Shown here one piece after another: positions 2,321 to 64,000 of a DNA stretch of 64,000 nt. The stretch's first letter is position 1. Each line of letters begins with the position of its first letter. The notes below the pieces were generated by a model that was given only the letters and a program-made list of their open reading frames with translations, made no database searches and was not told the DNA's origin. The position numbers and the translations under genes are program-made. The stretch comes from an uncultured Fibrobacteraceae bacterium. GTDB taxonomy: Bacteria; Krumholzibacteriota; Krumholzibacteriia; LZORAL124-64-63. The DNA lies in NCBI GenBank assembly GCA_964461255.1, contig CAYWTR010000012.1, positions 3,694 to 67,693 on the forward strand, in the 5' to 3' direction.

Positions 2321-3700
2321 ATGACGTTCCGCACGGTCAACCCCGCCACCGGCGAGATGGTCGCCGAATACCGCCTGCACACGGCCGCCGAGGTCGCCGC
2401 CGCCGCGCGCGGCGCGCGCGCCGCCTTCAGAGTCTGGCGGGAGCGGCCCCTGGCCCAGCGCACGGCTCTGCTCGGCGCGCTGGCCGCGGTCCTGCGCGCC
2501 CGCCGCGACGACTTCGCCCGGCAGATCACGCTGGAAATGGGCAAGCCGATCGCCGAGGCCCGGGCCGAGGTGGAGAAGTGCGCCTGGCTGTGCGAGGTCT
2601 ACGCGGAGCGGGCCGCGGACTGGCTGCGGGAAGAGGAGGTCGCCGCCGACGGCCTGCGCCACCGCGTCGTGCACCAGCCGCTGGGCGTGATCCTGGGCAT
2701 CATGCCGTGGAACTACCCCTTCTGGCAGGCGCTGCGCTTCGCCGTGCCGGCGCTGACGGCCGGCAACGCCGCGCTGCTCAAGCACGCCCGCAACGTCAGC
2801 GGCTGCGCCCTCGCCATCGAGGCGGCGTTCCGCGAAGCTGGCTTCCCGCCCGATCTGTTCCGCGCCGTGCTGGCCGATCACGCGGCGGCGGCGGCGCTGA
2901 TCGCCGGCGACGACATCGCCGCCGTCTCTCTGACCGGCAGCACCGAGGCCGGCCGCCGCGTGGCCGAAGCCGCCGGCCGGGCGCTCAAGAAGGTCGTGCT
3001 GGAACTGGGCGGGTCGGATCCCTTCATCGTGCTCGACGACGCCGACGTGGAGCTGGCGGCGGCGCAGGCGGTGCGGGGGCGGCTGCTGTGCAGCGGGCAG
3101 AGCTGCATCGCCGCCAAGCGCTTCATCGTGCACGCCGCGCTGGCCGAGCCGTTCACGGCCCGCTTCGCCTCCTTGATGGCCGCCCAGCGGGTCGGCGATC
3201 CCCTGGACGAGCGGACGCAGGTCGGGACCGTCGTGGGCGACGAGGCGCTGGCCGAGCTGGAGGCGCAGATCGAAGACGCGCGCGCGCGGGGAGCGCGCGT
3301 GGTGACCGGCGGGCGGCGGCTGCCGGGTCCCGGCTTCTTCCTGGCGCCGACCGTGCTGGCCGATGTCACCGCCGGCATGCGTGTCTGGCAGGAAGAGGTC
3401 TTCGGCCCCGTGGCGCCCGTGATGGCCGTGCGCGACGAGGAGGAGGCGGCGGCGGTCGCCAACGCCACCGCCTTCGGACTGGGCGGCAGCGTCTGGACGC
3501 GCGACCCGGAGCGCGGGGAGCGTCTGGCGCGACGCCTCGAGGCGGGAGCCGTCTTCGTCAACGGCATCGTCAAGTCGGACCCGCGGCTGCCTTTCGGCGG
3601 CGTCAAGCAGAGCGGCCTGGGGCGCGAGCTCGCGAGGCACGGCCTGCTGGAATTCGTCAACGTGCAGGCGCTCAGCGTCTATGCCCACGGCGCGGCCTGA
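2321..3700 (+). CDS. NAD(P)-dependent aldehyde dehydrogenase (succinate-semialdehyde dehydrogenase-like)
   Basis: 459-aa ORF. ALDH hallmarks: ELGGSDP glycine motif and catalytic Cys context CSGQSCIAAKRF. GGAGG Shine-Dalgarno ~6 nt upstream of the ATG. Confidence 0.85.
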   Translation: MTFRTVNPATGEMVAEYRLHTAAEVAAAARGARAAFRVWRERPLAQRTALLGALAAVLRARRDDFARQITLEMGKPIAEARAEVEKCAWLCEVYAERAADWLREEEVAADGLRHRVVHQPLGVILGIMPWNYPFWQALRFAVPALTAGNAALLKHARNVSGCALAIEAAFREAGFPPDLFRAVLADHAAAAALIAGDDIAAVSLTGSTEAGRRVAEAAGRALKKVVLELGGSDPFIVLDDADVELAAAQAVRGRLLCSGQSCIAAKRFIVHAALAEPFTARFASLMAAQRVGDPLDERTQVGTVVGDEALAELEAQIEDARARGARVVTGGRRLPGPGFFLAPTVLADVTAGMRVWQEEVFGPVAPVMAVRDEEEAAAVANATAFGLGGSVWTRDPERGERLARRLEAGAVFVNGIVKSDPRLPFGGVKQSGLGRELARHGLLEFVNVQALSVYAHGAA

Positions 3701-3727
3701 GGCGGCCCGCCGGTGCGAGGAGGCGAC

Positions 3728-4531
3728 GTGGCGCAGCCGCGGCGCGACGGCCTGACCGCCTTCCTCATCGTCCGCGACGAGGAGGCGCTGCTGCCCCGCT
3801 GCCTGGCCAGCCTGGCCGGGGTCGCCGATGAAGTGGCCGCCATCGACACCGGCAGCCGCGACGGCACGCGCGACGTCCTGGCCGCCGCCGCCGCGTCCGG
3901 CCGCTTCCGCCGGTTCGACTGGACCGAGCGCCCCTTCACGAATTTCGGCGCGCTGCGGCAGGCGTCGCTGGCGCTGGTGCAGACGACGTGGGCGCTGTGG
4001 ATCGACGCGGACGAGGCGCTCTCGCCCGCGCTGCGCCTGCGCCTGCGCGAGCTGCGCCGGCGCGGCGAACTGGCGACCTGCGACGGCTGGGAGATCCAAC
4101 GGGTCAACCGCGTGCTGGGGCGAGTGATGACCGGGCGCAACCTGTCCGGCCAGCACATCCTGCGGCTCTTCCGCGCCGAGGGGGCCCGTTTCTCGGACTC
4201 GCTGGTGCACGAGGGGATCGTCCTGCCAGCCGGCAGCCGTGTCGGCCGCCTGCGCGAGCCGCTGTTGCACGAGGCGATGACCAGCTGGCGCGCCTACCTG
4301 CGCAAGGTCGATCTCTACACCACGCTCGACGCCGCTTCCGGCGCCAAGCCGTTCCGGCCGCTGCATCTGCTGACGACCGGGCCGCTGACCTTCCTGCGGC
4401 ACTGGCTGGGGCGCGGCGGCTGGCGCGACGGTTGGCCCGGCCTGGTGTGGGCCGCCACGTCCGCCTGGGGCGCGGTGCTGCGCGACTGCAAGCGCGCCCG
4501 GCGGGAACGGGCCCGCCGGCGCGCGGCGTGA
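3728..4531 (+). CDS. Family 2 glycosyltransferase (LPS-core type)
   Basis: ORF 3713..4531. Preferred GTG start at 3728 preceded by GAGGAGG. GT2 motifs (LIVRDEE...IDTGSRDGT...WIDADE...VHEG). Clear paralog of the GT2 at 34627..35382. Confidence 0.65.
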   Translation: MAQPRRDGLTAFLIVRDEEALLPRCLASLAGVADEVAAIDTGSRDGTRDVLAAAAASGRFRRFDWTERPFTNFGALRQASLALVQTTWALWIDADEALSPALRLRLRELRRRGELATCDGWEIQRVNRVLGRVMTGRNLSGQHILRLFRAEGARFSDSLVHEGIVLPAGSRVGRLREPLLHEAMTSWRAYLRKVDLYTTLDAASGAKPFRPLHLLTTGPLTFLRHWLGRGGWRDGWPGLVWAATSAWGAVLRDCKRARRERARRRAA

Positions 4532-4533
4532 GC

Positions 4534-4559
4534 CGGCGCGCCATCCCCGCGGCGCGCCG
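4534..4559. terminator. GC hairpin between convergent genes (GGCGCGCC-N8-GGCGCGCC)
   Basis: 9-bp perfect stem with 8-nt loop, 3 nt after the GT2 stop and ~43 nt after the stop of the minus-strand ABC gene. No U-tract. Confidence 0.3.
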
Positions 4560-4601
4560 CCCCGCCGGCCGGCCGCTCCGGCGGCGGGCGGCCCCACCCG
4601 C

Positions 4602-6530
4602 TCAGCTGCGGAACTGCAGGTTGTGCAGCGCCCGATACGGCCCCTCGGCCTCGACCAACTCGGCGTGGGTGCCGGTCTGCACCAGCCGCCCGTCCTTCAG
4701 GACATGGATGCGGTCGGCGCTCTGGATGGTCGACAGGCGGTGGGCGATGACGATCGTCGTGCGGTCGCGCACCAGGCGATCGATCGCCTCCTGCACCAGC
4801 AGCTCGGATTCGGTGTCGAGGGCGCTGGTGGCCTCGTCCAGGATCAGGATAGGCGGGTCCTTCAGGATCGCGCGGGCGATCGACAAGCGCTGGCGCTGCC
4901 CCCCGGACATCTTGACGCCGCGGTCGCCGATCACGGTGTCGTAGCCGCGGGGCATCTGGGCGATGAAATCGTGCGCGTTGGCCGCGCGCGCCGCGGCCTC
5001 GATGCGCGCCTGGTCCACGTCGCGCAGGCCGTAGGCGATGTTGGCGCGCACGGTGTCGTTGAACAGGATGACCTCCTGCGTCACGATGCCCATCGCCCGC
5101 CGCAGCGACGGCAGCGTGAAACCGCGCACATCCTGCCCGTCGATGAGCACCCGTCCCTGTTGCGGCTCGTAGAAGCGCGGGATCAGGTCGACCAGCGTCG
5201 ACTTGCCGGCCCCGCTGGGTCCCACCAGCGCCACGACCTCGCCGGGGGCCACGCGCAGGGAGATGCCGCGCAGCACGGGCTCGCCGGGCACGTAGGCGAA
5301 CCAGACATCCTCGAAGGCGACCTCGCCCCGCGGCCGCGCCAGCTCCCTGGCGCCGGGCGCCGCCACCGGCTCGGGAACGACATCGAGCACCGCGAAGATG
5401 CGCTCGGCCGCCGCCATCCCCTCCTGGATATTGTTGTTGACGCCGCTGAGCGCCTTGACCGGGTGCACGAGCGAGAAGATGCAGACCAGGAAGACGATGA
5501 AGAGGTCGGGCGGCAGCTGCTGCGCGCCCGCCAGCACCTGGCGGCCGCCGTACCACAGGATGAACAGCCCCACCCCCACCGACAGCTGCTCGGTCAGCGG
5601 CGACGACAGCCGCTCGATGCGCGCCATCTTGTACATGTCCCGGAACAGGCGGTGCGACTCGGCGAGAAAGCGCGCCCCCTCGAAGCGCTCCATGACGAAC
5701 GCCTTGACCACGCGCACGCCGGTCACCGTCTCCTGCAGGATCGAGGTCAGGTTGGCCATCTTCTCCTGCTGGCGGTGGCTGTACTTGCGCAGCTTCTGGC
5801 CGATGCGGATGATGATCAGCATGCTCAGCGGCAGCACGGCCAGGGCCAGCAGCGTCAGCTGCCAGCTGATCAGCAGCGCCTGCGCCAGGAAGACCACGAT
5901 GAAGATGGGGTCGCGCACCAGATTCGTGAAGCTGACGTTGACGCACTTGTAGGCCACCTGCACGTCGTTGGTGGCGCGGCTGATCAGCTCGCCGGCCCGC
6001 CGCTGGTGGTAGAAGGCGAGCGGCAGGTGCATGAATTTCGTGAACAGCTCGTCGCGCAGGTCCTTGATCATGCGCAGGCCGACGTACGACATCAGCACCG
6101 CCTGCAAATAGCCGGCGGCGTTCTTGACCAGGTAGATGAAGAAGAAGATGACGCAGATGCGCCAGAGCGCCTCCAGCTTGGTGCCGCGCAGCAGGTAGCC
6201 GTCGACGCGCGCCTTGAGGCGGTCGCGCAGCCCCGTCAGACCGGTCACGCCCGCCCCCAGGTCGAGCGCCGCCGGCGCGCCGGACACGGGCGGCGGCGCG
6301 ACGAGCTGGCCGGCCGCCTCGCCCGTCGCCTCGCCCGTCGCCTCGCCCGCCCCCGCGCCCGCCCCCGCGTCGAGGGGAGCCTCGGTCGAGAACAACGTGC
6401 CCAGGAAGGGGGAGATCATCAGCACGCTCATGCCGCTGAGCACCGAGAAGACGATCATGAAGAGCGTCGACAGGATCAGCTGGCCCAGGTACGGCCGGAT
6501 GTAGCGCAGCGTGCGCAGGTATATCCGCAT
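4602..6530 (-). CDS. ABC transporter, fused permease/ATPase (MsbA-like lipid exporter)
   Basis: 642 aa. N-terminal 6-TM exporter domain plus Walker A GPSGAGKST, ABC signature LSGGQRQRLSIARA and Walker B ILILDEATSALD. Low-complexity insert AGAGAGAGEATGEATGEAAG encoded by a 12-nt tandem repeat (~6315-6350). Confidence 0.85.
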   Translation of the reverse strand: MRIYLRTLRYIRPYLGQLILSTLFMIVFSVLSGMSVLMISPFLGTLFSTEAPLDAGAGAGAGEATGEATGEAAGQLVAPPPVSGAPAALDLGAGVTGLTGLRDRLKARVDGYLLRGTKLEALWRICVIFFFIYLVKNAAGYLQAVLMSYVGLRMIKDLRDELFTKFMHLPLAFYHQRRAGELISRATNDVQVAYKCVNVSFTNLVRDPIFIVVFLAQALLISWQLTLLALAVLPLSMLIIIRIGQKLRKYSHRQQEKMANLTSILQETVTGVRVVKAFVMERFEGARFLAESHRLFRDMYKMARIERLSSPLTEQLSVGVGLFILWYGGRQVLAGAQQLPPDLFIVFLVCIFSLVHPVKALSGVNNNIQEGMAAAERIFAVLDVVPEPVAAPGARELARPRGEVAFEDVWFAYVPGEPVLRGISLRVAPGEVVALVGPSGAGKSTLVDLIPRFYEPQQGRVLIDGQDVRGFTLPSLRRAMGIVTQEVILFNDTVRANIAYGLRDVDQARIEAAARAANAHDFIAQMPRGYDTVIGDRGVKMSGGQRQRLSIARAILKDPPILILDEATSALDTESELLVQEAIDRLVRDRTTIVIAHRLSTIQSADRIHVLKDGRLVQTGTHAELVEAEGPYRALHNLQFRS

Positions 6531-6619
6531 CGGCAGGCGCCCTCGCGCGGGAGAAAGCGGGGATCGCGGGCAAGATCGTCCGGCGGCACGCCGCGGTCAA
6601 GCCGGCCGGAGCCGCGTGA

Positions 6620-8554
6620 TCATGGCACGGCCGGGCGCTCGCGTCCAGGCGTCTGGCCCTCGGCGCCCGCCTGCCAGCGGATGCGGTAGAGGGTGGCGCT
6701 GGTCCCTTGCAGCAGGGGCACGAAGCGTGGATCGCCGGCGAAGGCGGCGCGATCCAGCGGCGCGCGGTGCGGCGCGGGCAGACTCAAGTCGCTGGCCCAG
6801 AGCAGATTGACACCCCGCCGGCGCAGAGCCTCCGCCTCGACGCCCCACGGGCTGGCCGCCAGGCCGCAGGCCAGCCGGTGCAGGCTGCGGCCCTGCGCGT
6901 CCCACAGCTCCCAGCTGCACGGCTGCAGGAAGGCACAGCCCGAGATCTGCGCCGCCCAGGCGCTGCCATCGTCCCGGAAGTTGGCGACCACGTCGCCCGG
7001 AGACACCGCGGCGGGCAGCCGGCAGGCAAGTTCGTAGGCGGCCTTGTCGAACGGCACGACCGCGTGGAAGCTGCGGTACATCTTGACCACGGCGCGCGGC
7101 GCGGGATGCAGCGCGGCGGCGCAGAGCAGCACCAGCGCGGCCGCGCCCCATGCCGGGCCGCGGCGCGCCCGCACCCAGGCCGCCGCGACCAGCGGCGGCG
7201 CGGCCAGCAGGGGCCCCAGCACGAAGACCTGGAGGTAGAGCACGCGCGCCGCCTGCCCGTAGAACGGCGCCGCCAGCGCGCCGGCGTCCGGCGCGGGTCG
7301 GGTCGCCACGACGAGGTAGTAGGCGCCCAGGGCCAGGCCGAGCAGGCTCAGGCGGCGCAGCGCCGGCAACGCGAGCCCCAGGGCCACCCCGGCCAGCAGC
7401 AGCGGCTTGAGCGCTCCGGCACGCCCGCCCGCGCCGATGTATTCCCCAACGGCCTGTCCGAGGGACAGCGGCGCGTGCCCCTCGGCGACCGCCTTGCCGG
7501 CGTAGACGCTCAGCAGCGGCAACGCTTCCGGCCAGGCCGCCAGCGCGAGAGCGCCGGCGCCGCAGAGCAGCGCGGGCCAGGCTCGCCGTCCGGGCGCCGC
7601 CGTGGCGACTCCCCTCTCGCCGCCGGCGCGGTGGCGCGGCAGCCAGATCGCCAGCAACAGCACCACCACGACCTCGGCCGCGTGGATCTGCAGCAGCCCG
7701 CCCAGCAGCAGCCCCACCAGCGCGCCCGCCCACGGTGTGCGTTCCCGGGCGGCGCCGCGCCAGGCCAGGACGACCGCCGGCGTCAGGAACATGCCGGCGA
7801 TCAGGCCGAAGCCGCCCCAGCCGAGCACCCCGGCCGGCGCGAACTTGTTGAGCGACGTCAGCAGGGCGCCGAGCATCAGGCCGCCTCCGGCGACGCCGAA
7901 GGCGCGCCACAGCAAGGTCAGGGCGGCCGGCAGCAGGCAGAGCAGGCAAAGGGGCAGGAACCAGGCGCTGACGTAGGGCGCCAGGCCGCCGAGTCGGGCG
8001 ATCAGGGCGGCGGCGCCGTGCCATCCCGCCAGGTACAGCGCCGCCGGCCGATCGCCGCCGGCGGGGAATAGCCGCGCCGGCGAGAGGGCCTCCGCCCCGA
8101 TCACGCGCCGCACGAGTTCGGCATGGTTGGCGGCGTCGTGGAGATGGGGCGGCACCGGCAGGTCGTGGAATCCGGCCCACAGCATCAGGCCGACTCCGCC
8201 GGCGCAGCCCAGCAGCCACAGCTGGGCCGCCCCGCTCAGGGGCGCAAGCCCCGCGCTCCAGGCCTCCACGGCGCGCCGGTGCGCGGGCGCGCGGCCCAGC
8301 GCCAGCCCCGACAGCAGGGCGGCCGGCAGGTAGACGACCGGCGACAGCGGCAGGCGGGCCAGTCCCAACGCCGTGCCCAGCAGCGGGACGAGCAGAAGCC
8401 CGGCCGCCAGCGAGCAGAGCGTTCGCCCCAGCGGCTCCAGGCCGCTCAGCCAACGGCCGACCGCCAGATGCCCGGGAAGCCAGAGCAGCATGGCCGCCGC
8501 CGCCGACCAGCGCAGCCAGAGCAGCGGGTCGGTGAGCGGAAACGGCGCGTGCAT
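6620..8554 (-). CDS. Polytopic inner-membrane protein, GT-C-like (hypothetical)
   Basis: 644-aa ORF. N-terminal ~430 aa is highly hydrophobic (>=10 predicted TM segments) with a hydrophilic C-terminal domain. Start lies 7 nt downstream of the beta-helix gene stop and 89 nt upstream of the ABC exporter. Confidence 0.45.
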   Translation of the reverse strand: MHAPFPLTDPLLWLRWSAAAAMLLWLPGHLAVGRWLSGLEPLGRTLCSLAAGLLLVPLLGTALGLARLPLSPVVYLPAALLSGLALGRAPAHRRAVEAWSAGLAPLSGAAQLWLLGCAGGVGLMLWAGFHDLPVPPHLHDAANHAELVRRVIGAEALSPARLFPAGGDRPAALYLAGWHGAAALIARLGGLAPYVSAWFLPLCLLCLLPAALTLLWRAFGVAGGGLMLGALLTSLNKFAPAGVLGWGGFGLIAGMFLTPAVVLAWRGAARERTPWAGALVGLLLGGLLQIHAAEVVVVLLLAIWLPRHRAGGERGVATAAPGRRAWPALLCGAGALALAAWPEALPLLSVYAGKAVAEGHAPLSLGQAVGEYIGAGGRAGALKPLLLAGVALGLALPALRRLSLLGLALGAYYLVVATRPAPDAGALAAPFYGQAARVLYLQVFVLGPLLAAPPLVAAAWVRARRGPAWGAAALVLLCAAALHPAPRAVVKMYRSFHAVVPFDKAAYELACRLPAAVSPGDVVANFRDDGSAWAAQISGCAFLQPCSWELWDAQGRSLHRLACGLAASPWGVEAEALRRRGVNLLWASDLSLPAPHRAPLDRAAFAGDPRFVPLLQGTSATLYRIRWQAGAEGQTPGRERPAVP

Positions 8555-8560
8555 GATGGG

Positions 8561-10285
8561 TCAGCGGAGCATGGTCAGCTTGTGCGCGTCGCGGTTGACG
8601 CCACCTTCGAGCACCGCCAGATACGTGCCCGAGGAGAGCAGGCGGCCGGCGTCGTCGGTTCCGTCCCAGGTGAAGGCGTGAGCGCCCGACGGGAGCGAGC
8701 CGGCGAACAGGGTCGCCAGCGGGCGTCCGCGCAGATCGTGCACGGCCAGGCGGACCCGCTGCGCCGAACCCAGCTCGAGCGTGATCGTCGTGCGGGGATT
8801 GAAGGGGTTGGGATGCGCGCCGGCGATGCGCAGCAGCGGAGGCGAGGCTCCAGCCTGGACCGGTTGTGTCCACGCCAACCGCCAATCGCCGTCGCCGTAG
8901 CGGTATTGCAGCGTGTAGACCACGACGCCGCCGGGCGCCGCATCGTCGGCCGCCGAAAACCAGCCCCCGCCCTCGGCGACGACCGGCACCACCCACTCCA
9001 CGCCATCGCTCACGGCCAGCAGCCGGAACTCAGGGGCGGGGCCATCGCCCGTGAACCGCCAGCGCAGCGTGACGCGAGACCCCTGCGTCCGGACCTCGGG
9101 CGCCGGCCATGCGTCCGTCACCCCGTCGGTGCTGACGCCGCGCGAGCCCATCCCGCCGCAGGCCGAATTCTGCGGCGTGCACGGCGACTCCGGGTGCAGG
9201 TTGAAATCCTCGGGACCGTCGAACACCTCGCCCCAGAACAGCGGATCAACGCTGAGATTGCCGCCGCGTCCGCCCAGGCCGGCGATCGCCCCCACCCAGT
9301 CGCCGCCGTCGTTGCCGAACAGGTTGCTGCACTGCAGCGCCGGGACCTCCTGCCCGTAGGCGGCCAGGGCTTCCAGCTGGTTGAAGGCGATGATCGAGTT
9401 CTGGATGTCGGGCGCGGCCCCCAGGCACATCAGGCCGCCGCCGCCTTCCTGCGCCCGGTTGGCCGCGATGGTGCAGCGCGCCAGGCGCGGGCTGGCGCCG
9501 CTGAACAGGGCCAGCCCCCCTCCGGTGAGCGCCTCGTTGAGGATGATCGTGCACTGCTCGAGCGAGGGGGACGAGCTGAAGTCGCAGAACACCGCCCCGC
9601 CGAATCCGCGCGGGGCGATGGCCACGTTGCCCTGCAGCAGGCAGCCGGTCAGTGTCGCCTGGGCTTCCACGCGGCACTCGAGCGCGCCGCCCCACGCCGC
9701 CAGGTTGCCGGTGAACGAGCAGTCGACGAAGGCCGGCGTCGCCCCGTAGCGGCAGGATGCCCCCCCGCCGCCGCCGGTCGCCACGCCGTTGCCGCGGAAT
9801 GCGCAGCCGACGAACACCGGCGAGCCGCCGTTGACGCGCACGCCGCCGCCGTACTTCTGCGCCGTGTTGCCCGCGATCACGCAATTGCGGACGGTCAGAT
9901 GCGCATCGGCCAGGAAGATGCCGCCGCCGCTGGCTTCGAACGCGGTCGGGCCCTCGGCGCGCCCGCCGGTGATGGTGAAGCCCTCGACCACCGTCGTTGC
10001 GCTCAGGTTCTCGCCGTGCAGCACGCGCCCGGCGCCCTGCGCGTCGATGGTCACGCAATCGGGCTGCCCGGTCGCGCTGCGCAGAACGACGCCGCTCTTG
10101 AGCAGCAGATTGTGTTCGCGGTAGGTGCCGCAGGCGACGACGATGGCATCGCCCGCCGCGGCGCGCTCGAGCGCGGCGCGGATGGTCACGGCGTCCTGGG
10201 GAACGCGCCAGGTCGCGGCGGGAACGATGGCAGAGCTCAACAGGCAGGCAAGCAGGGTGAGTACGGCAATGGTGCGCACCTGCAT
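8561..10285 (-). CDS. Secreted right-handed beta-helix repeat protein with T9SS/FlgD-Ig-like C-terminal sorting domain
   Basis: Start ATG at 10285 (MQVRTIAVLTLLACLLSSAIVPAA signal peptide) with GGAAGGAG SD 6 nt upstream. Parallel beta-helix repeats (GGGIFLADAHLTVRNCVIAGNTA..., NxxxN/GG-rich). C-terminal ...HPNPFNPRTTITLEL...GTYLAVLE resembles Por-secretion-system sorting tails. Confidence 0.7.
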   Translation of the reverse strand: MQVRTIAVLTLLACLLSSAIVPAATWRVPQDAVTIRAALERAAAGDAIVVACGTYREHNLLLKSGVVLRSATGQPDCVTIDAQGAGRVLHGENLSATTVVEGFTITGGRAEGPTAFEASGGGIFLADAHLTVRNCVIAGNTAQKYGGGVRVNGGSPVFVGCAFRGNGVATGGGGGASCRYGATPAFVDCSFTGNLAAWGGALECRVEAQATLTGCLLQGNVAIAPRGFGGAVFCDFSSSPSLEQCTIILNEALTGGGLALFSGASPRLARCTIAANRAQEGGGGLMCLGAAPDIQNSIIAFNQLEALAAYGQEVPALQCSNLFGNDGGDWVGAIAGLGGRGGNLSVDPLFWGEVFDGPEDFNLHPESPCTPQNSACGGMGSRGVSTDGVTDAWPAPEVRTQGSRVTLRWRFTGDGPAPEFRLLAVSDGVEWVVPVVAEGGGWFSAADDAAPGGVVVYTLQYRYGDGDWRLAWTQPVQAGASPPLLRIAGAHPNPFNPRTTITLELGSAQRVRLAVHDLRGRPLATLFAGSLPSGAHAFTWDGTDDAGRLLSSGTYLAVLEGGVNRDAHKLTMLR

Positions 10286-10613
10286 CAGCGGCTCCTTCCA
10301 CGGCAAGCGCGCGCTGGGTGGGACAGCGCGGCGGCGAGCCCATCGCCGGCCGGCGGTGGTGGGCTGAAGATAGGCCGGCCAGGCCCGACAGTCCACCATC
10401 GATGCAGGAATTTTGCCGCGCGACCGGCGATCAAGCGGATTTGTGTAATATCATGACCATCAATCAACTAGGGCGCCCGCCTTGCCAGCGGGCGCAGCCG
10501 ACCTTCCGGCTAGCCGGCAATTGTTGCTGGTGGGACCCGCCCGCGTGCTGTAACATGAGCCCACGGCTCTGTGCGCCCCCCTCGCCGCGCGCCGTTGGGA
10601 AGGACCATCGACC

Positions 10614-57180: not shown

Positions 57181-57337
57181 GCCCCGGTCAGGGGATGGAG
57201 TCCCCCGTCAACCGCCCTCTTGGGGCTGATGACTCCTGTAGGAAGCTGGGCAGAGGGCCTCTTCTGCCCGCACGGCAACCGCAGGATGTTGGCCCGCTCA
57301 GGCGGCCCGTCGATCCGGATCCCGGGAGGACTCCCCC

Positions 57338-59834: not shown

Positions 59835-60245
59835 TCAGAGCCGGATCAGCCTGGCAGCCTGCGACTGCCGCGTCAGAATCTCCACCATGTTGGACGCTCG
59901 TCCGATCGCCAGCCGGTCGACCAGGCCGAAATAATCGAGGCAGGTGCCGCAGCAGAGGACCTCGACGCCGAGATCCGCCAGCGCCCGCAGGTCGTCAAGG
60001 GCGGCCGAGCCCGAGCAGCAGAGCTTGACGCCCGCGTTCATGAACAGCAAGCAGGCCGGCGGCTGCGGCAGTTTGGCCAGGCTCCTCAGGGCCGACAACA
60101 TGAGCGCCGCGCCCAGATCGTCGTCGCCGCGCCCTAGCCGGTCGGACGCGATGAAGATGACGGGGGGCGCGGTCGGCGTTTCCGGCTGCACGGCGCGGGC
60201 CGCCGCCTGGGCGGCCGAGCGGTCGGGTGGCGAAGCCTCGTTCAC
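59835..60245 (-). CDS. DsrE/DsrF-like sulfur-relay family protein (resembles C-terminal domain of YedF selenium-metabolism protein)
   Basis: 136 aa from GTG 60245 (GAAGGAG SD). CLLFMNAGVKL...LADLGVEVLCCGTCLDYFGL...ASNMVEIL pattern typical of DsrE-fold proteins. Confidence 0.55.
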   Translation of the reverse strand: MNEASPPDRSAAQAAARAVQPETPTAPPVIFIASDRLGRGDDDLGAALMLSALRSLAKLPQPPACLLFMNAGVKLCCSGSAALDDLRALADLGVEVLCCGTCLDYFGLVDRLAIGRASNMVEILTRQSQAARLIRL

Positions 60246-60394
60246 GTCGCTCCTTCGGGATCGCGCGCCAGCGAGAAGATCACTGGCCGCCGCGCCCGAA
60301 CAATCAGCAGCGAGGCGCGGGGCGTCAAGCGGGTTGTGGTGCGGCGGCCACGGCTGGGCCGCCGGCGGCGCGCCTGCCGGCGGCGCGGGCCGCC

Positions 60395-61084
60395 TCAGAC
60401 GCCGATGGTGTCGAAGTAGCGCCGCAGCTCGTCCTTCATCGCCGCCATCGAGTCGGCGACGAACAGGATCGAATTGAATTCCCAGACCGACTTCTCGTGC
60501 TTGATGATGTTGTCGACCGTGAAGGGCTCCAGCGGCGTGCCGCCGGACATCACCTTGTCGGTCTCGGCGGCGGAGGAGATCAGGCCGGCCCCGAACAGCT
60601 TCAGCCGGCCGTCCTCGCGCAGCAAGCCGAACTCGGTGCTGTACCAGGCCAGCCGCTTGACGTTCTCGCGCTGCTGCTCGTCGCCGCGCAGGAAGGCGGG
60701 CGCGAACAGTTCCTCCAGCTCGGCGTACGCGGGCAGGGTCATGAACGGCAGGTGCCCGAAGATGTCGTGGAACATGTCCGGTTCGGGGGTGAAATCGAGC
60801 TCGGGCCAGTCGCGCATGTAGTCGGTGATCAGGAACTGCTTGCGGGCGAACTGCTCGTACCACGCCTCGGCGGTCGAGTAGCGGACGTTGGTGCGGACCG
60901 TGCGCCAGCCGGTGGCCGGCGTGATGCGCGCGTTGAGCTGCTCGAGCGATGGGATCGTCTCGCGCGGGATCTGCAGCCGCTGGAATCCATCCAGATACTC
61001 CCGGCAGGCGTGCTGCTGGATGCGCGGCAGCATGCGGTCATGCAGCGTGCGCCAGATCTTGTGCTGGTCCTCGGTGAACTCCAT
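60395..61084 (-). CDS. phhA: Phenylalanine-4-hydroxylase (aromatic amino acid hydroxylase catalytic domain)
   Basis: 229 aa from ATG 61084 (GAGGAGGG SD). Iron-binding 2-His-1-carboxylate signature PDMFHDIFGHLPFM ... WYSTEFGL. Confidence 0.75.
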   Translation of the reverse strand: MEFTEDQHKIWRTLHDRMLPRIQQHACREYLDGFQRLQIPRETIPSLEQLNARITPATGWRTVRTNVRYSTAEAWYEQFARKQFLITDYMRDWPELDFTPEPDMFHDIFGHLPFMTLPAYAELEELFAPAFLRGDEQQRENVKRLAWYSTEFGLLREDGRLKLFGAGLISSAAETDKVMSGGTPLEPFTVDNIIKHEKSVWEFNSILFVADSMAAMKDELRRYFDTIGV

Positions 61085-61296
61085 GCCCGACCCTCCTCGG
61101 GGATTCGGCGCGCCGCCCCAGGGTGCACCAGTGCGCGCCCAACGGGCGGGAAAAGAGACCGGCGCCACATCCAGCATATAATAAGGAGGGGGGCCAATTC
61201 AATACACAATTAATCTTTGTTTCAATAATTGATTATCGATCAAAGAGTTATAATACTTCCGGAGTTGTCGTCTAATATTTGTACAGGCATTGACTT

Positions 61297-61476
61297 GTGC
61301 CGCGAAGATTGTTTCCAGCAGGATGCCTGCGGCAAGGAGAACTACAAAATCCATTATGGGACAATAACTTGCTTTCAGATGGAGCAGGAGCCATAGGATC
61401 ACGTGCCGCGATGGCAAGATCAAGTGCGCCAATGCGATCCGTCACCCGCCCGGTCCGGACACAATCTTCGCGGCAC
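61297..61476. repeat. ~180-bp TIR element (copy B), reverse-complement of copy A at 48812..48990
   Basis: GTGCCGCGAAGATTGTTTCCAG...CCGGACACAATCTTCGCGGCAC. Internal blocks (ATGGATT, CTTGCCGC.GGCATCCTGC, GGTGACGGA.CGC.TTGGCGCACTTG) conserved with copy A. Flanked by a strongly AT-rich stretch (61190-61296). Confidence 0.7.
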
Positions 61477-62388: not shown

Positions 62389-62606
62389 GGCGTCCCCCCC
62401 GCGCTCGCCCGGGCGCGTACTGCGGAGCCGCCGCTCGCGCGGCGCTCCCGCTCGATCGACGGTGCGACGGCGCGTTGAATTCAGCCGTCAGTATCATGAT
62501 AACGCGTTCGCATCCCCGCGCCCAGGGCCGGCACGGGCATGCTATAATCATCGACCGTGCGCAATTCACGGTTGCATCGCCCCACGAGATCGACAAGGAG
62601 AACCCG

Positions 62607-64000
62607 ATGATCCTCCGCCAAGCCTGCCGCGCCCGCCGCGGTGCCGCCGCGCCCGCGCGCTCGATGACCCTCGGGCTGCTGGGCGCCGTCATGGGCACCG
62701 CCGCCGTCGTGTTCGTGGCCGCCGCCCCCGCCGCCGCCGCGCCGCGCGCGGTGTTGGGCGAGCTGTTCTCGTCCGACGGCTGACCGTACTGCCCTTCCGC
62801 GGTCGCGGGAATCAGGCAGCTCGCTCAGGAATACGACGCGACGGCTTTCGTGCCCGTCACCTGGTACACATCCGCCCCCTACGCTTTCCCCGAGGGGGTG
62901 CAGCGCTTCTCCTGGCTCGGCTTCTCCGGCACCCCCAGCGCCATGTTCGACGGCTACGACGCCGTGGTGGGGGGCATGCCGGCCGGTTCGATGTACAGCA
63001 GCTACGCGCCTATCGTCGCCGCTCACCTGGCCGCCGACAGTCCGCTGGCGATGTCGGCCCAGTACGCCTTGCTGGGGACGACCGGCATGATCAACGTCCA
63101 CATCGAGGTGACCGCGGCGGTGACCACGACCAGCAACCAGGTGCATTTCGTGATCGTGGAGGACCAGGCCCACAGCCAGGTCAACCTGGCGCGGCGAAAG
63201 CTGGCCAACGAATCGTTCCTGCTGACGCAGCCGGGCCAGAGCGTCGACATCGCCCGCGAGTTCACGCTCGAGGCGGGCTGGGATCCGGACCGGATCGGGA
63301 TCGTGGTCTTCGTGCAGAGCCACGCCGGCAACAAGGCGGTGCTGCAGGCCGCGAAGGCAGTCCCGAACTACGCCGCGACCGTGGTGATCGACGCCGAGCC
63401 CGACGGCCTGGACGCCGGCTGGCATCTGAGCGGACCGTACGGCCTGTCGCTCAGCGGCAGCGGCGACAAGACGCTGCCGGTCTTCGCCGCCGGCGAGCAC
63501 ACGCTCGCCTGGCAGCAGGTCGCGGGCTGGACGACGCCGTCCCCCGCCACCCAGACGCTCGACGCGCCGGTCGGCGGCACCATCACCTTCGCGGGGCTGT
63601 ACACCGGCGGGGCCTTCGCCGCCGTCACGGCCGGTCCGCTCGGCGCCGCCGGCGCGGGCCGCGGCGTCAGCCTGATCGACGCCGACGGAGACGGCGACCT
63701 GGACATCTACGTCGTCAACCACCTGCAGTCCAACCGGCTGCTGCGCAACGACGGCGGCGGCCTCTTCACCGACATCGCCGCCGGCGCCCTGGCCGACGCG
63801 GGCCCCGCGGGCGGCGCCGCCTGGGCCGACTACGACAACGACGGCGACATGGACCTCTACCTGGCGCGCGACGGGCAGGCCAATCTGCTGCTGCGCAACG
63901 ACGGCGGCGTCTTCAGCGACGCCACCACCACGACGATCGCCGACGCCGGACCCGGACGCGCCGTCTGCTGGGCCGACTTCAACAACGACGGGCTGGTCGA
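62607..64000 (+). CDS. Candidate secreted selenoprotein (3'-partial): signal peptide – Sec(UGA 62781) – PYC thiol/selenol redox motif – globular domain – FG-GAP repeats
   Basis: AAGGAGAA SD then ATG 62607. 58-aa signal-peptide-like N-terminus ends ...LGELFSSDG followed by in-frame TGA. The same frame stays open with protein-like sequence for 405 more codons to the window edge (PYCPSAVAGIRQLAQEY...; DADGDGDLDIYVVNHLQSNRLLRNDGG.. FG-GAP-type repeats). SECIS-like hairpin follows the TGA. Confidence 0.5.
62789..62819 (+). other. SECIS-like stem-loop (bacterial type) 6 nt downstream of UGA 62781
   Basis: CUGCC-C-UUCCGC-[GGUC]-GCG(G)GAA-UCA-GGCAG: ~15 bp of pairing with an apical GGUC loop whose G/U fall at positions 21-23 from the UGA, similar to E. 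coli fdhF geometry. Confidence 0.4.

Follow-up and report, generated by a model that had tools for sequence, protein, structure and literature searches.

Thioredoxin-fold selenoproteins with a UxxC motif and a selenocysteine insertion sequence (SECIS) inside the open reading frame (ORF) are the commonest kind of bacterial selenoprotein. A related fold with Cys in place of selenocysteine occurs in HBP35 of P. gingivalis, a protein involved in heme acquisition. One UxxC family, GOS_C, was described in 2008 from the GOS metagenome, where no other new selenoprotein family was as abundant; it counted 74 selenocysteine and 312 Cys sequences and had a thioredoxin-like fold (Zhang & Gladyshev, PMC2398784), and the profile NF045500 is listed as 'Hypothetical protein GOS_C' with the motif UxxC in Table 1 of a 2026 review (PMC13188914). 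HBP35 reduces insulin via C48/C51 and complements an E. coli dsbA mutant; it is a cargo of the type IX secretion system (T9SS), and its surface display needs its C-terminal domain (PMC2907840). Here, a 64,000-nt stretch of DNA from an uncultured Fibrobacteraceae bacterium (contig CAYWTR010000012.1 of assembly GCA_964461255.1, positions 3,694 to 67,693; hereafter the window) was analyzed, and all positions refer to it. The UGA at 62781-62783, on the forward strand near the window end, is very probably a selenocysteine codon within one gene for an exported thioredoxin-like selenoprotein.

All features of this gene lie on the forward strand. Its start was read directly: a Shine-Dalgarno (SD)-like sequence, AAGGAGAA (62594-62601), lies 5 nt 5' of the ATG at 62607, and translation from this start codon gave a putative Sec-type signal peptide of residues 1-44 (62607-62738), whose n-region is rich in Arg and whose core is hydrophobic. 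The 58 codons from the ATG encode MILRQACRARRGAAAPARSMTLGLLGAVMGTAAVVFVAAAPAAAAPRAVLGELFSSDG, a signal-peptide-like segment that is followed by TGA 62781-62783. Signal cleavage would fall between AAA and APRAV, a site placed by inspection; the ortholog signal peptides are laid out alike and end in ASA or ATA before APRAVLGELF. Tat export was considered as well and was dropped, the RR motif not being conserved in orthologs. Directly 5' of the TGA, APRAVLGELFSSDG (62739-62780) aligned to IVLAEIFESDG of the Cys homolog P0002 and was assigned to strand 1 of the thioredoxin-like module. The P0002 segment forms strand E42-48 in the model of that protein, and its counterpart was kept in all related loci with the selenocysteine form. 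The motif at the site is G-TGA-P-Y-C, in which the UGA (residue 59) would supply selenocysteine as the leading residue of the UxxC redox motif and TGC 62790-62792 the resolving Cys62; this second Cys was invariant in alignment A4.

The frame 3' of the TGA runs PYCPSAVAGIRQLAQEYD... for 405 codons without a stop to base 64000, the end of the window. The GC content at third codon positions (GC3) was 0.97 5' of the TGA and 0.94 3' of it, and both sides were therefore taken as coding. The first start-like codon 3' of the TGA is a GTG, 23 codons on, which has no SD. A first-pass annotation of this DNA had described an SD and ATG 62607, a 58-aa signal-peptide-like ORF ending at the TGA, a GC3-rich frame open for more than 400 codons beyond it, and a downstream part without a start or SD of its own, and each of these was found in the sequence. 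It had also put spurious frames in this DNA at only 30-90 aa. This is incorrect: spurious ORFs of 400-540 aa occur in the window, and one of them, an antisense ORF of 413 aa, overlies the candidate gene itself. ORF length is therefore no evidence of coding here; codon-position GC and homology are.

Contigs from independent Sequence Read Archive (SRA) runs were found via the neighbouring M90-peptidase protein, and three of them span the TGA site. These strain variants were 100%, 99.79% and 99.29% identical to the window, and the TGA and hairpin were identical in all three, which answers the suggestion of the first-pass annotation that the codon be resequenced. With 17 and 5 substitutions, the variants held too few changes for a selection signal beyond the retention of the TGA and the hairpin.

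An exhaustive search with the 198 residues after the TGA as query gave 578 representatives at E <= 0.001, while a word-indexed protein search gave only two matches, P0002 among them. The best 150 of the 578, together with P0002, were classified (n = 151). A signal peptide and a CxxC at the exact TGA column were present in 81 of the 151. The Cys form P0003 (53% identity) has a signal peptide and reads ..GAGCPYCPSAVAG.. / ..VVLGELFEGAGCPYCPSAVAG.. at the CxxC column, and P0008 and P0002 are other Cys forms with a signal peptide and Cys at the TGA column. Both motif Cys were invariant in a 17-sequence alignment of Cys forms, which were colinear with the window protein; the TGA had been proposed to stand at the first Cys of a CxxC motif, and this placement held. 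A further 63 of the 151 were N-truncated gene calls starting at or just after the column, the pattern left when a gene finder cuts a selenoprotein gene. No homolog with its own start and signal after the TGA column was found among the 151, an arrangement that had been named as the one to look for.

Fifteen distinct related loci were read as DNA (L005 with two paralogs, L006-L014, L016, L017, L018 and L019), and all 15 had an in-frame TGA at the column, never TAA or TAG. Eight of them were traced from or matched truncated calls and seven came from locus scans, for which a 4-sequence alignment was used, the 16-sequence alignment A1 being too diverse. L006 is a metagenome-assembled genome (MAG), and L007-L015 are nine metagenome loci, eight of them distinct. 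The loci spanned 32-61% identity and 44-69% GC, and in each an upstream ATG, a signal peptide and the strand R(A/T/V)V(L/I)GELF were conserved. The two L005 paralogs read TATW-TGA-VYCP and TSTT-TGA-PVCP. The one close Cys form read as DNA, L020 (P0003), which is also the closest, has TGC at the column. Homologs were thus found with a signal peptide and either Cys or an in-frame TGA at this position, as the first-pass annotation had asked.

All eight truncated calls that were traced or matched to DNA had the in-frame TGA at the column, with a signal peptide before it, and a large share of the family is probably truncated in public protein sets. In L005, a low-GC metagenome contig, positions 2893-7869 hold a tandem array of related genes with T9SS tails: two consecutive selenocysteine forms, with TGA at 2998 and 5078, are followed from 7141 by a gene with a faint Omp28 match. 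The array suggests a local paralog expansion of the selenocysteine module with different passenger domains.

Folding, the criteria of the bacterial SECIS (bSECIS) model and covariation were used to examine a hairpin in the ORF at 62789-62819. It begins at the 6th nt after the UGA, behind a 5-nt spacer. The lower stem CUGCC/GGCAG pairs 62789-93 with 62815-19 and is followed by a bulged C (62794); the 6-bp upper stem UUCCGC/GCGGGA pairs 62795-800 with 62805-10 and carries the apical tetraloop GGUC (62801-62804), with 17 nt between the UGA and the loop. The energy of the 31-nt element was -14.2 kcal/mol. The bSECIS model has a loop of 3-9 nt with G in the first two loop positions, an upper stem of 4-16 bp, a spacing of 16-37 nt and a minimum free energy <= -7.5 kcal/mol (PMC13188914), and the window hairpin fell within all of these ranges (GGUC loop, 6 bp, 17 nt, -14.2 kcal/mol). 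A strict scan of the upper stem alone gave -7.3 kcal/mol against the cutoff of -7.5 and rejected it, and whole-element folding was used instead. Thermodynamic stability was tried as SECIS evidence and dropped, since the z-score against shuffled sequences was not significant. The tetraloop is non-random in two respects: an exact GGUC on a stem of 6 bp or more occurs four times in 128 kb (both strands), one of the four being at the TGA site, and it is conserved in relatives.

Across 10 loci, 83.6% of the proposed pairs were formed, versus at most 53.6% in slid controls. Pair 15-30, between the wobble positions of a Pro codon and a Gly codon, was U-A (five loci), C-G (three) or G-C (one); for pair 12-36 the counts were six C-G, two U-A and one U-G. 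The compensatory changes sit at third codon positions. The synonymous sites in GCG-GUC-GCG were invariant in 11 loci of the selenocysteine form, while in the one Cys form, with the same PSAVAG peptide, three synonymous sites had changed, namely the last bases of the codons for Ser, the first Ala and Val, and GGUC was lost. Distant selenocysteine forms kept a hairpin 17-18 nt from the UGA with the loops CGUGC, AGUUA and GGA; in the most distant, L014, L016, L019 and L005, the hairpin had other loops and a shifted register. The stem-loop with an apical GGUC that had been noted 6 nt after the UGA was thus recovered and found to covary. In L020, positions 1645-1689 (P0003) encode CPYCPSAVAG and still fold a 6-bp hairpin with a UGCCGU loop, which could be the remnant of an earlier SECIS or no more than an effect of GC-rich codons.

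Like the SECIS of E. coli fdhF and bSECIS elements, the window hairpin stands in the ORF right after the UGA and has a small loop starting with G and then G or U. Counted from the U of the UGA, its upper stem begins at nt 15, as in the minimal E. coli SECIS. The fdhF loop is likewise GGUC. Unlike the fdhF type, the window hairpin has no bulged U in the upper stem, and it has a bulged C between the stems and a U-G wobble.

Profile scores and a homolog model placed an HBP35/Omp28-type module, a thioredoxin fold followed by a beta-sandwich, at residues ~46-257 (62742-63377). The window protein scored 47.2 bits against NF045500 (E 1.9e-12, profile positions 35-267), below the curated cutoff of 200; L006 and both L005 paralogs, with 50-66 bits, were also below this cutoff. 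The scores were 37.7 bits against NF033782 (cutoff 150) and 30.4 against the Pfam family Omp28, PF11551 (cutoff 34.9). Membership of the Omp28 lipoproteins was rejected on these two scores and on the lack of a lipobox Cys after the signal peptide. The UxxC motif of the window protein is U-P-Y-C, and the thioredoxin fold was seen in the AlphaFold model of the Cys homolog P0002 (predicted local distance difference test 82.9, predicted template modelling score 0.78): a classical b-a-b-a-b-b-a thioredoxin fold, in which helix 1 begins with the CxxC, and after it a sandwich of seven strands. A PDB sequence search with the family profile gave no match; the fold search with the P0002 model found HBP35 as the top PDB match (5Y1A, E 4.6e-10, template modelling score 0.67, 245 aligned columns). 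The first-pass annotation had likened the motif to the glutaredoxin active site. This likeness did not hold: the fold is of the HBP35/Omp28 type and not that of glutaredoxin, the PF00462 score was 12.6 vs 22.9 bits, and only the CPYC tetrapeptide is common to both.

The module is followed by a beta-sandwich-like linker domain of ~78 residues (DAEPDGL...FAGLYTG, 63378-63611) without a Pfam family, which was 51% identical to a repeated domain of P0001 and was conserved in orthologs. The first FG-GAP/VCBS repeats, with DxDxDG motifs, occupy 63654-64000, where the gene runs off the window end; PF13517 (FG-GAP_3) matched the window part in three stretches (85.2 bits, cutoff 26.9). Full-length orthologs (55-61% identity) have 869-876 aa in the order signal peptide, U-PYC module, small beta-sandwich, about six FG-GAP_3 repeats, UnbV_ASPIC and a FlgD-Ig/T9SS-type tail. 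The L005 paralogs scored 35.6 and 25.1 against the T9SS model (cutoff 23), and precomputed Por_Secre_tail matches in relatives were weak.

Two other genes of the window are connected with selenium. A gene of the GSU2204 family of CXXCH (seleno)proteins, cut at the window start, occupies 1-2226 on the forward strand (NF041027, 517 bits, cutoff 350). NF041027, which models the part before the selenocysteine, ends exactly at the in-frame TGA 1786-1788; 3' of this TGA, 146 codons are open with a GC3 of 0.93 and no start codon, and a stem of 9 bp capped by a GUG loop follows the UGA at a distance of 22 nt. The GSU2204 family is listed as a selenoprotein family (PMC13188914), and the gene at 1-2226 is the predicted second selenoprotein gene of the window. 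A gene for a YedF-type selenium metabolism protein lies at 59838-60260 on the reverse strand (TIGR03527, 127 bits, cutoff 110), in agreement with the DsrE/YedF-like gene already noted upstream. The match covers only profile positions 71-194, the DsrE-like half, and the gap to the end of the phenylalanine-hydroxylase gene at 60395 seems too short for the N-terminal SirA-like domain of YedF. Judged from their sequences, the GSU2204-family and YedF genes lend indirect support to selenium use in the organism.

Several results weigh against the selenocysteine reading or against parts of it. The hairpin was no more stable than shuffled sequence (z = -0.35), and SECIS-model-like hairpins lie downstream of about 20% of the window's TGAs; the bSECIS criteria alone are therefore weak in this GC-rich DNA. 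Rfam gave nothing relevant at the site, neither at gathering thresholds nor at E <= 10 over 62700-62900, where only chance miRNA matches appeared. ARAGORN found no tRNA of any kind in the 64-kb window, and thus no selenocysteine tRNA (tRNA-Sec), and Pfam and NCBIfam found no selA, selB or selD among its 37 GC3-supported ORFs. The modelled P0002 is a stand-in for the window protein, a Cys homolog of 31% identity. The T9SS tail is attributed to the window protein by analogy with orthologs, the C-terminal half lying beyond the window, and at the C-terminus of L006 the FlgD_ig score was 41.8 (cutoff 27) and that of TIGR04183 was 22.6, just under its cutoff of 23.

Automatic gene calls in Logan contigs and in relatives split the gene at the TGA, and TGA is the commonest stop codon of the window, as would suit an ordinary stop between two cistrons, one for a 58-aa peptide and one for a separate downstream protein. 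Such an arrangement is very improbable: the 22 codons after the TGA hold no start and the GTG that follows is SD-less, a protein begun downstream would lack, from its thioredoxin fold, strand 1, the CxxC and some of helix 1, amino-acid conservation crosses the TGA in 15 of 15 related loci, and the Cys homologs are single colinear proteins. As TGA is one base from TGC and TGT, and the closest Cys form has TGC, a nonsense mutation in a pseudogene or a sequencing or assembly error could also be imagined. This explanation is contradicted by the data and has a negligible probability, the TGA being common to three strain variants from independent runs and standing at the column in 15 divergent loci, never as TAA or TAG, with a downstream GC3 of 0.94 and a conserved protein sequence.

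A genetic code with UGA as a sense codon for Trp or Gly would be suggested by the in-frame TGA itself and by nothing more. The GC3-supported ORFs of the window end in 28 TGA, 9 TAG and no TAA, and the 27 others that end in TGA do so beside independent downstream starts. Since TGA is the usual stop, a reassigned code is excluded; moreover, the GC content of the window is 72% and homologs have Cys at this residue rather than Trp or Gly, so that practically no weight is left for this reading, which the stop usage contradicts. It is also improbable that the UGA is recoded to Cys or another standard residue, by a UGA-reading tRNA-Cys or allo-tRNA or by Cys-for-selenocysteine misloading at scarce selenium. 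Cys is functionally interchangeable at the site in 81 homolog representatives, but the conserved hairpin has the geometry and the G-G/U loop of a SelB-dependent SECIS, another gene in the window, from a curated selenoprotein family, has its UGA at the curated position, the YedF selenium-metabolism gene is present, and the wider family is catalogued as selenoproteins.

On the selenocysteine reading, SelB-GTP-Sec-tRNA(Sec) bound to the GGUC-loop hairpin at 62789-62819 would insert selenocysteine at UGA 62781-83, giving a product in which U-P-Y-C forms the redox centre where helix 1 of the thioredoxin fold begins. The Sec-type signal peptide would carry the pre-protein across the inner membrane, with cleavage near the AAA-AP junction. 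By analogy with orthologs, the C-terminal part is expected to be an ASPIC/FG-GAP beta-propeller with a FlgD-Ig/T9SS-type sorting domain, and with T9SS-type sorting the protein would end up at the surface of the cell or beyond it. There, outside the cytoplasm and beside the putative Ca-binding beta-propeller, the N-terminal module may act as a selenol/thiol-disulfide oxidoreductase, like HBP35.

Automatic callers turn the gene into two ORFs, one of 58 aa and a headless one downstream, and they do likewise in dozens of relatives; as NF045500 of NCBIfam misses the branch, this mis-annotation would persist until the branch has a model of its own. Tentatively, and with rather more doubt than confidence, the locus may represent a large, systematically mis-annotated clade of T9SS-exported, surface-displayed selenoproteins in bacteria of the Fibrobacterota/Bacteroidota group, with a selenocysteine-thioredoxin head on varied extracellular domains. 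If this is true, up to ~40% of the family representatives in protein databases would be truncated, and selenocysteine redox chemistry would take place outside the outer membrane, in a compartment without an obvious reductant; this location was not discussed in the selenoprotein literature searched. No new principle is involved, since UxxC, the thioredoxin fold and an in-ORF SECIS are standard logic; what is unusual is the predicted location. The case would also indicate that a bacterial selenoprotein can be called correctly by a reader from sequence alone.

Other features of the window were recorded. A fluoride riboswitch (RF01734, 55.4 bits, 57182-57245, forward strand) lies directly 5' of a gene of the Na+/H+-exchanger family (PF00999, 57338-58588), not of crcB or eriC. 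An AT-rich island, with 31-48% GC against 72% for the window as a whole, sits at ~61180-61400, flanked by the 3' end of the M90 peptidase gene and the start of the phenylalanine-hydroxylase gene. A beta-helix protein at 8564-10450 on the reverse strand has a C-terminal FlgD_ig match (38.6 bits) and is another candidate T9SS-type cargo; a DUF6541 membrane protein is next in the same frame.

Compared with the described systems, the N-terminal module of the window protein is homologous to NF045500/GOS_C, and both have a thioredoxin-like fold, a UxxC motif with selenocysteine first, an in-ORF bacterial SECIS and many Cys homologs. The window gene differs in standing outside the equivalog (47 vs 200 bits) and in the fusion of its branch to an FG-GAP/ASPIC propeller and a T9SS-type tail, the C-terminal parts being known from orthologs; GOS_C is described only as a hypothetical thioredoxin-like protein. 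HBP35 (5Y1A; PMC2907840, PMC3120885) likewise combines a signal peptide with an N-terminal, CxxC-bearing thioredoxin module and a beta-sandwich, and its C-terminal T9SS sorting domain resembles the T9SS-type tail of the orthologs. It has Cys rather than selenocysteine, lacks an FG-GAP/ASPIC propeller and shares 15% sequence identity, the comparison being made via the 31%-identical homolog. The Omp28 outer-membrane lipoproteins (PF11551, NF033782) show weak homology to the beta-sandwich half and to the whole module, while the window protein lies below both cutoffs and has no lipobox Cys. The ASPIC/UnbV-FG-GAP (CRTAC1-like) propellers share FG-GAP_3 with DxDxDG in the window and UnbV_ASPIC in orthologs.

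The literature search gave no description of ASPIC/UnbV-FG-GAP proteins with an N-terminal selenocysteine-thioredoxin module, and no link of Omp28, FG-GAP proteins or type IX secretion to bacterial selenoproteins. The first-pass annotation had called the protein novel, which is right for a branch beyond the NF045500 cutoff with a new domain fusion and wrong for the domain itself, a homolog of the known GOS_C/NF045500. Because of this homology, together with the absence of a literature link to Omp28, FG-GAP or T9SS, the window gene is, by sequence comparison, not a new category of selenoprotein; it is a divergent subfamily, with a new domain fusion, within a known selenoprotein superfamily.

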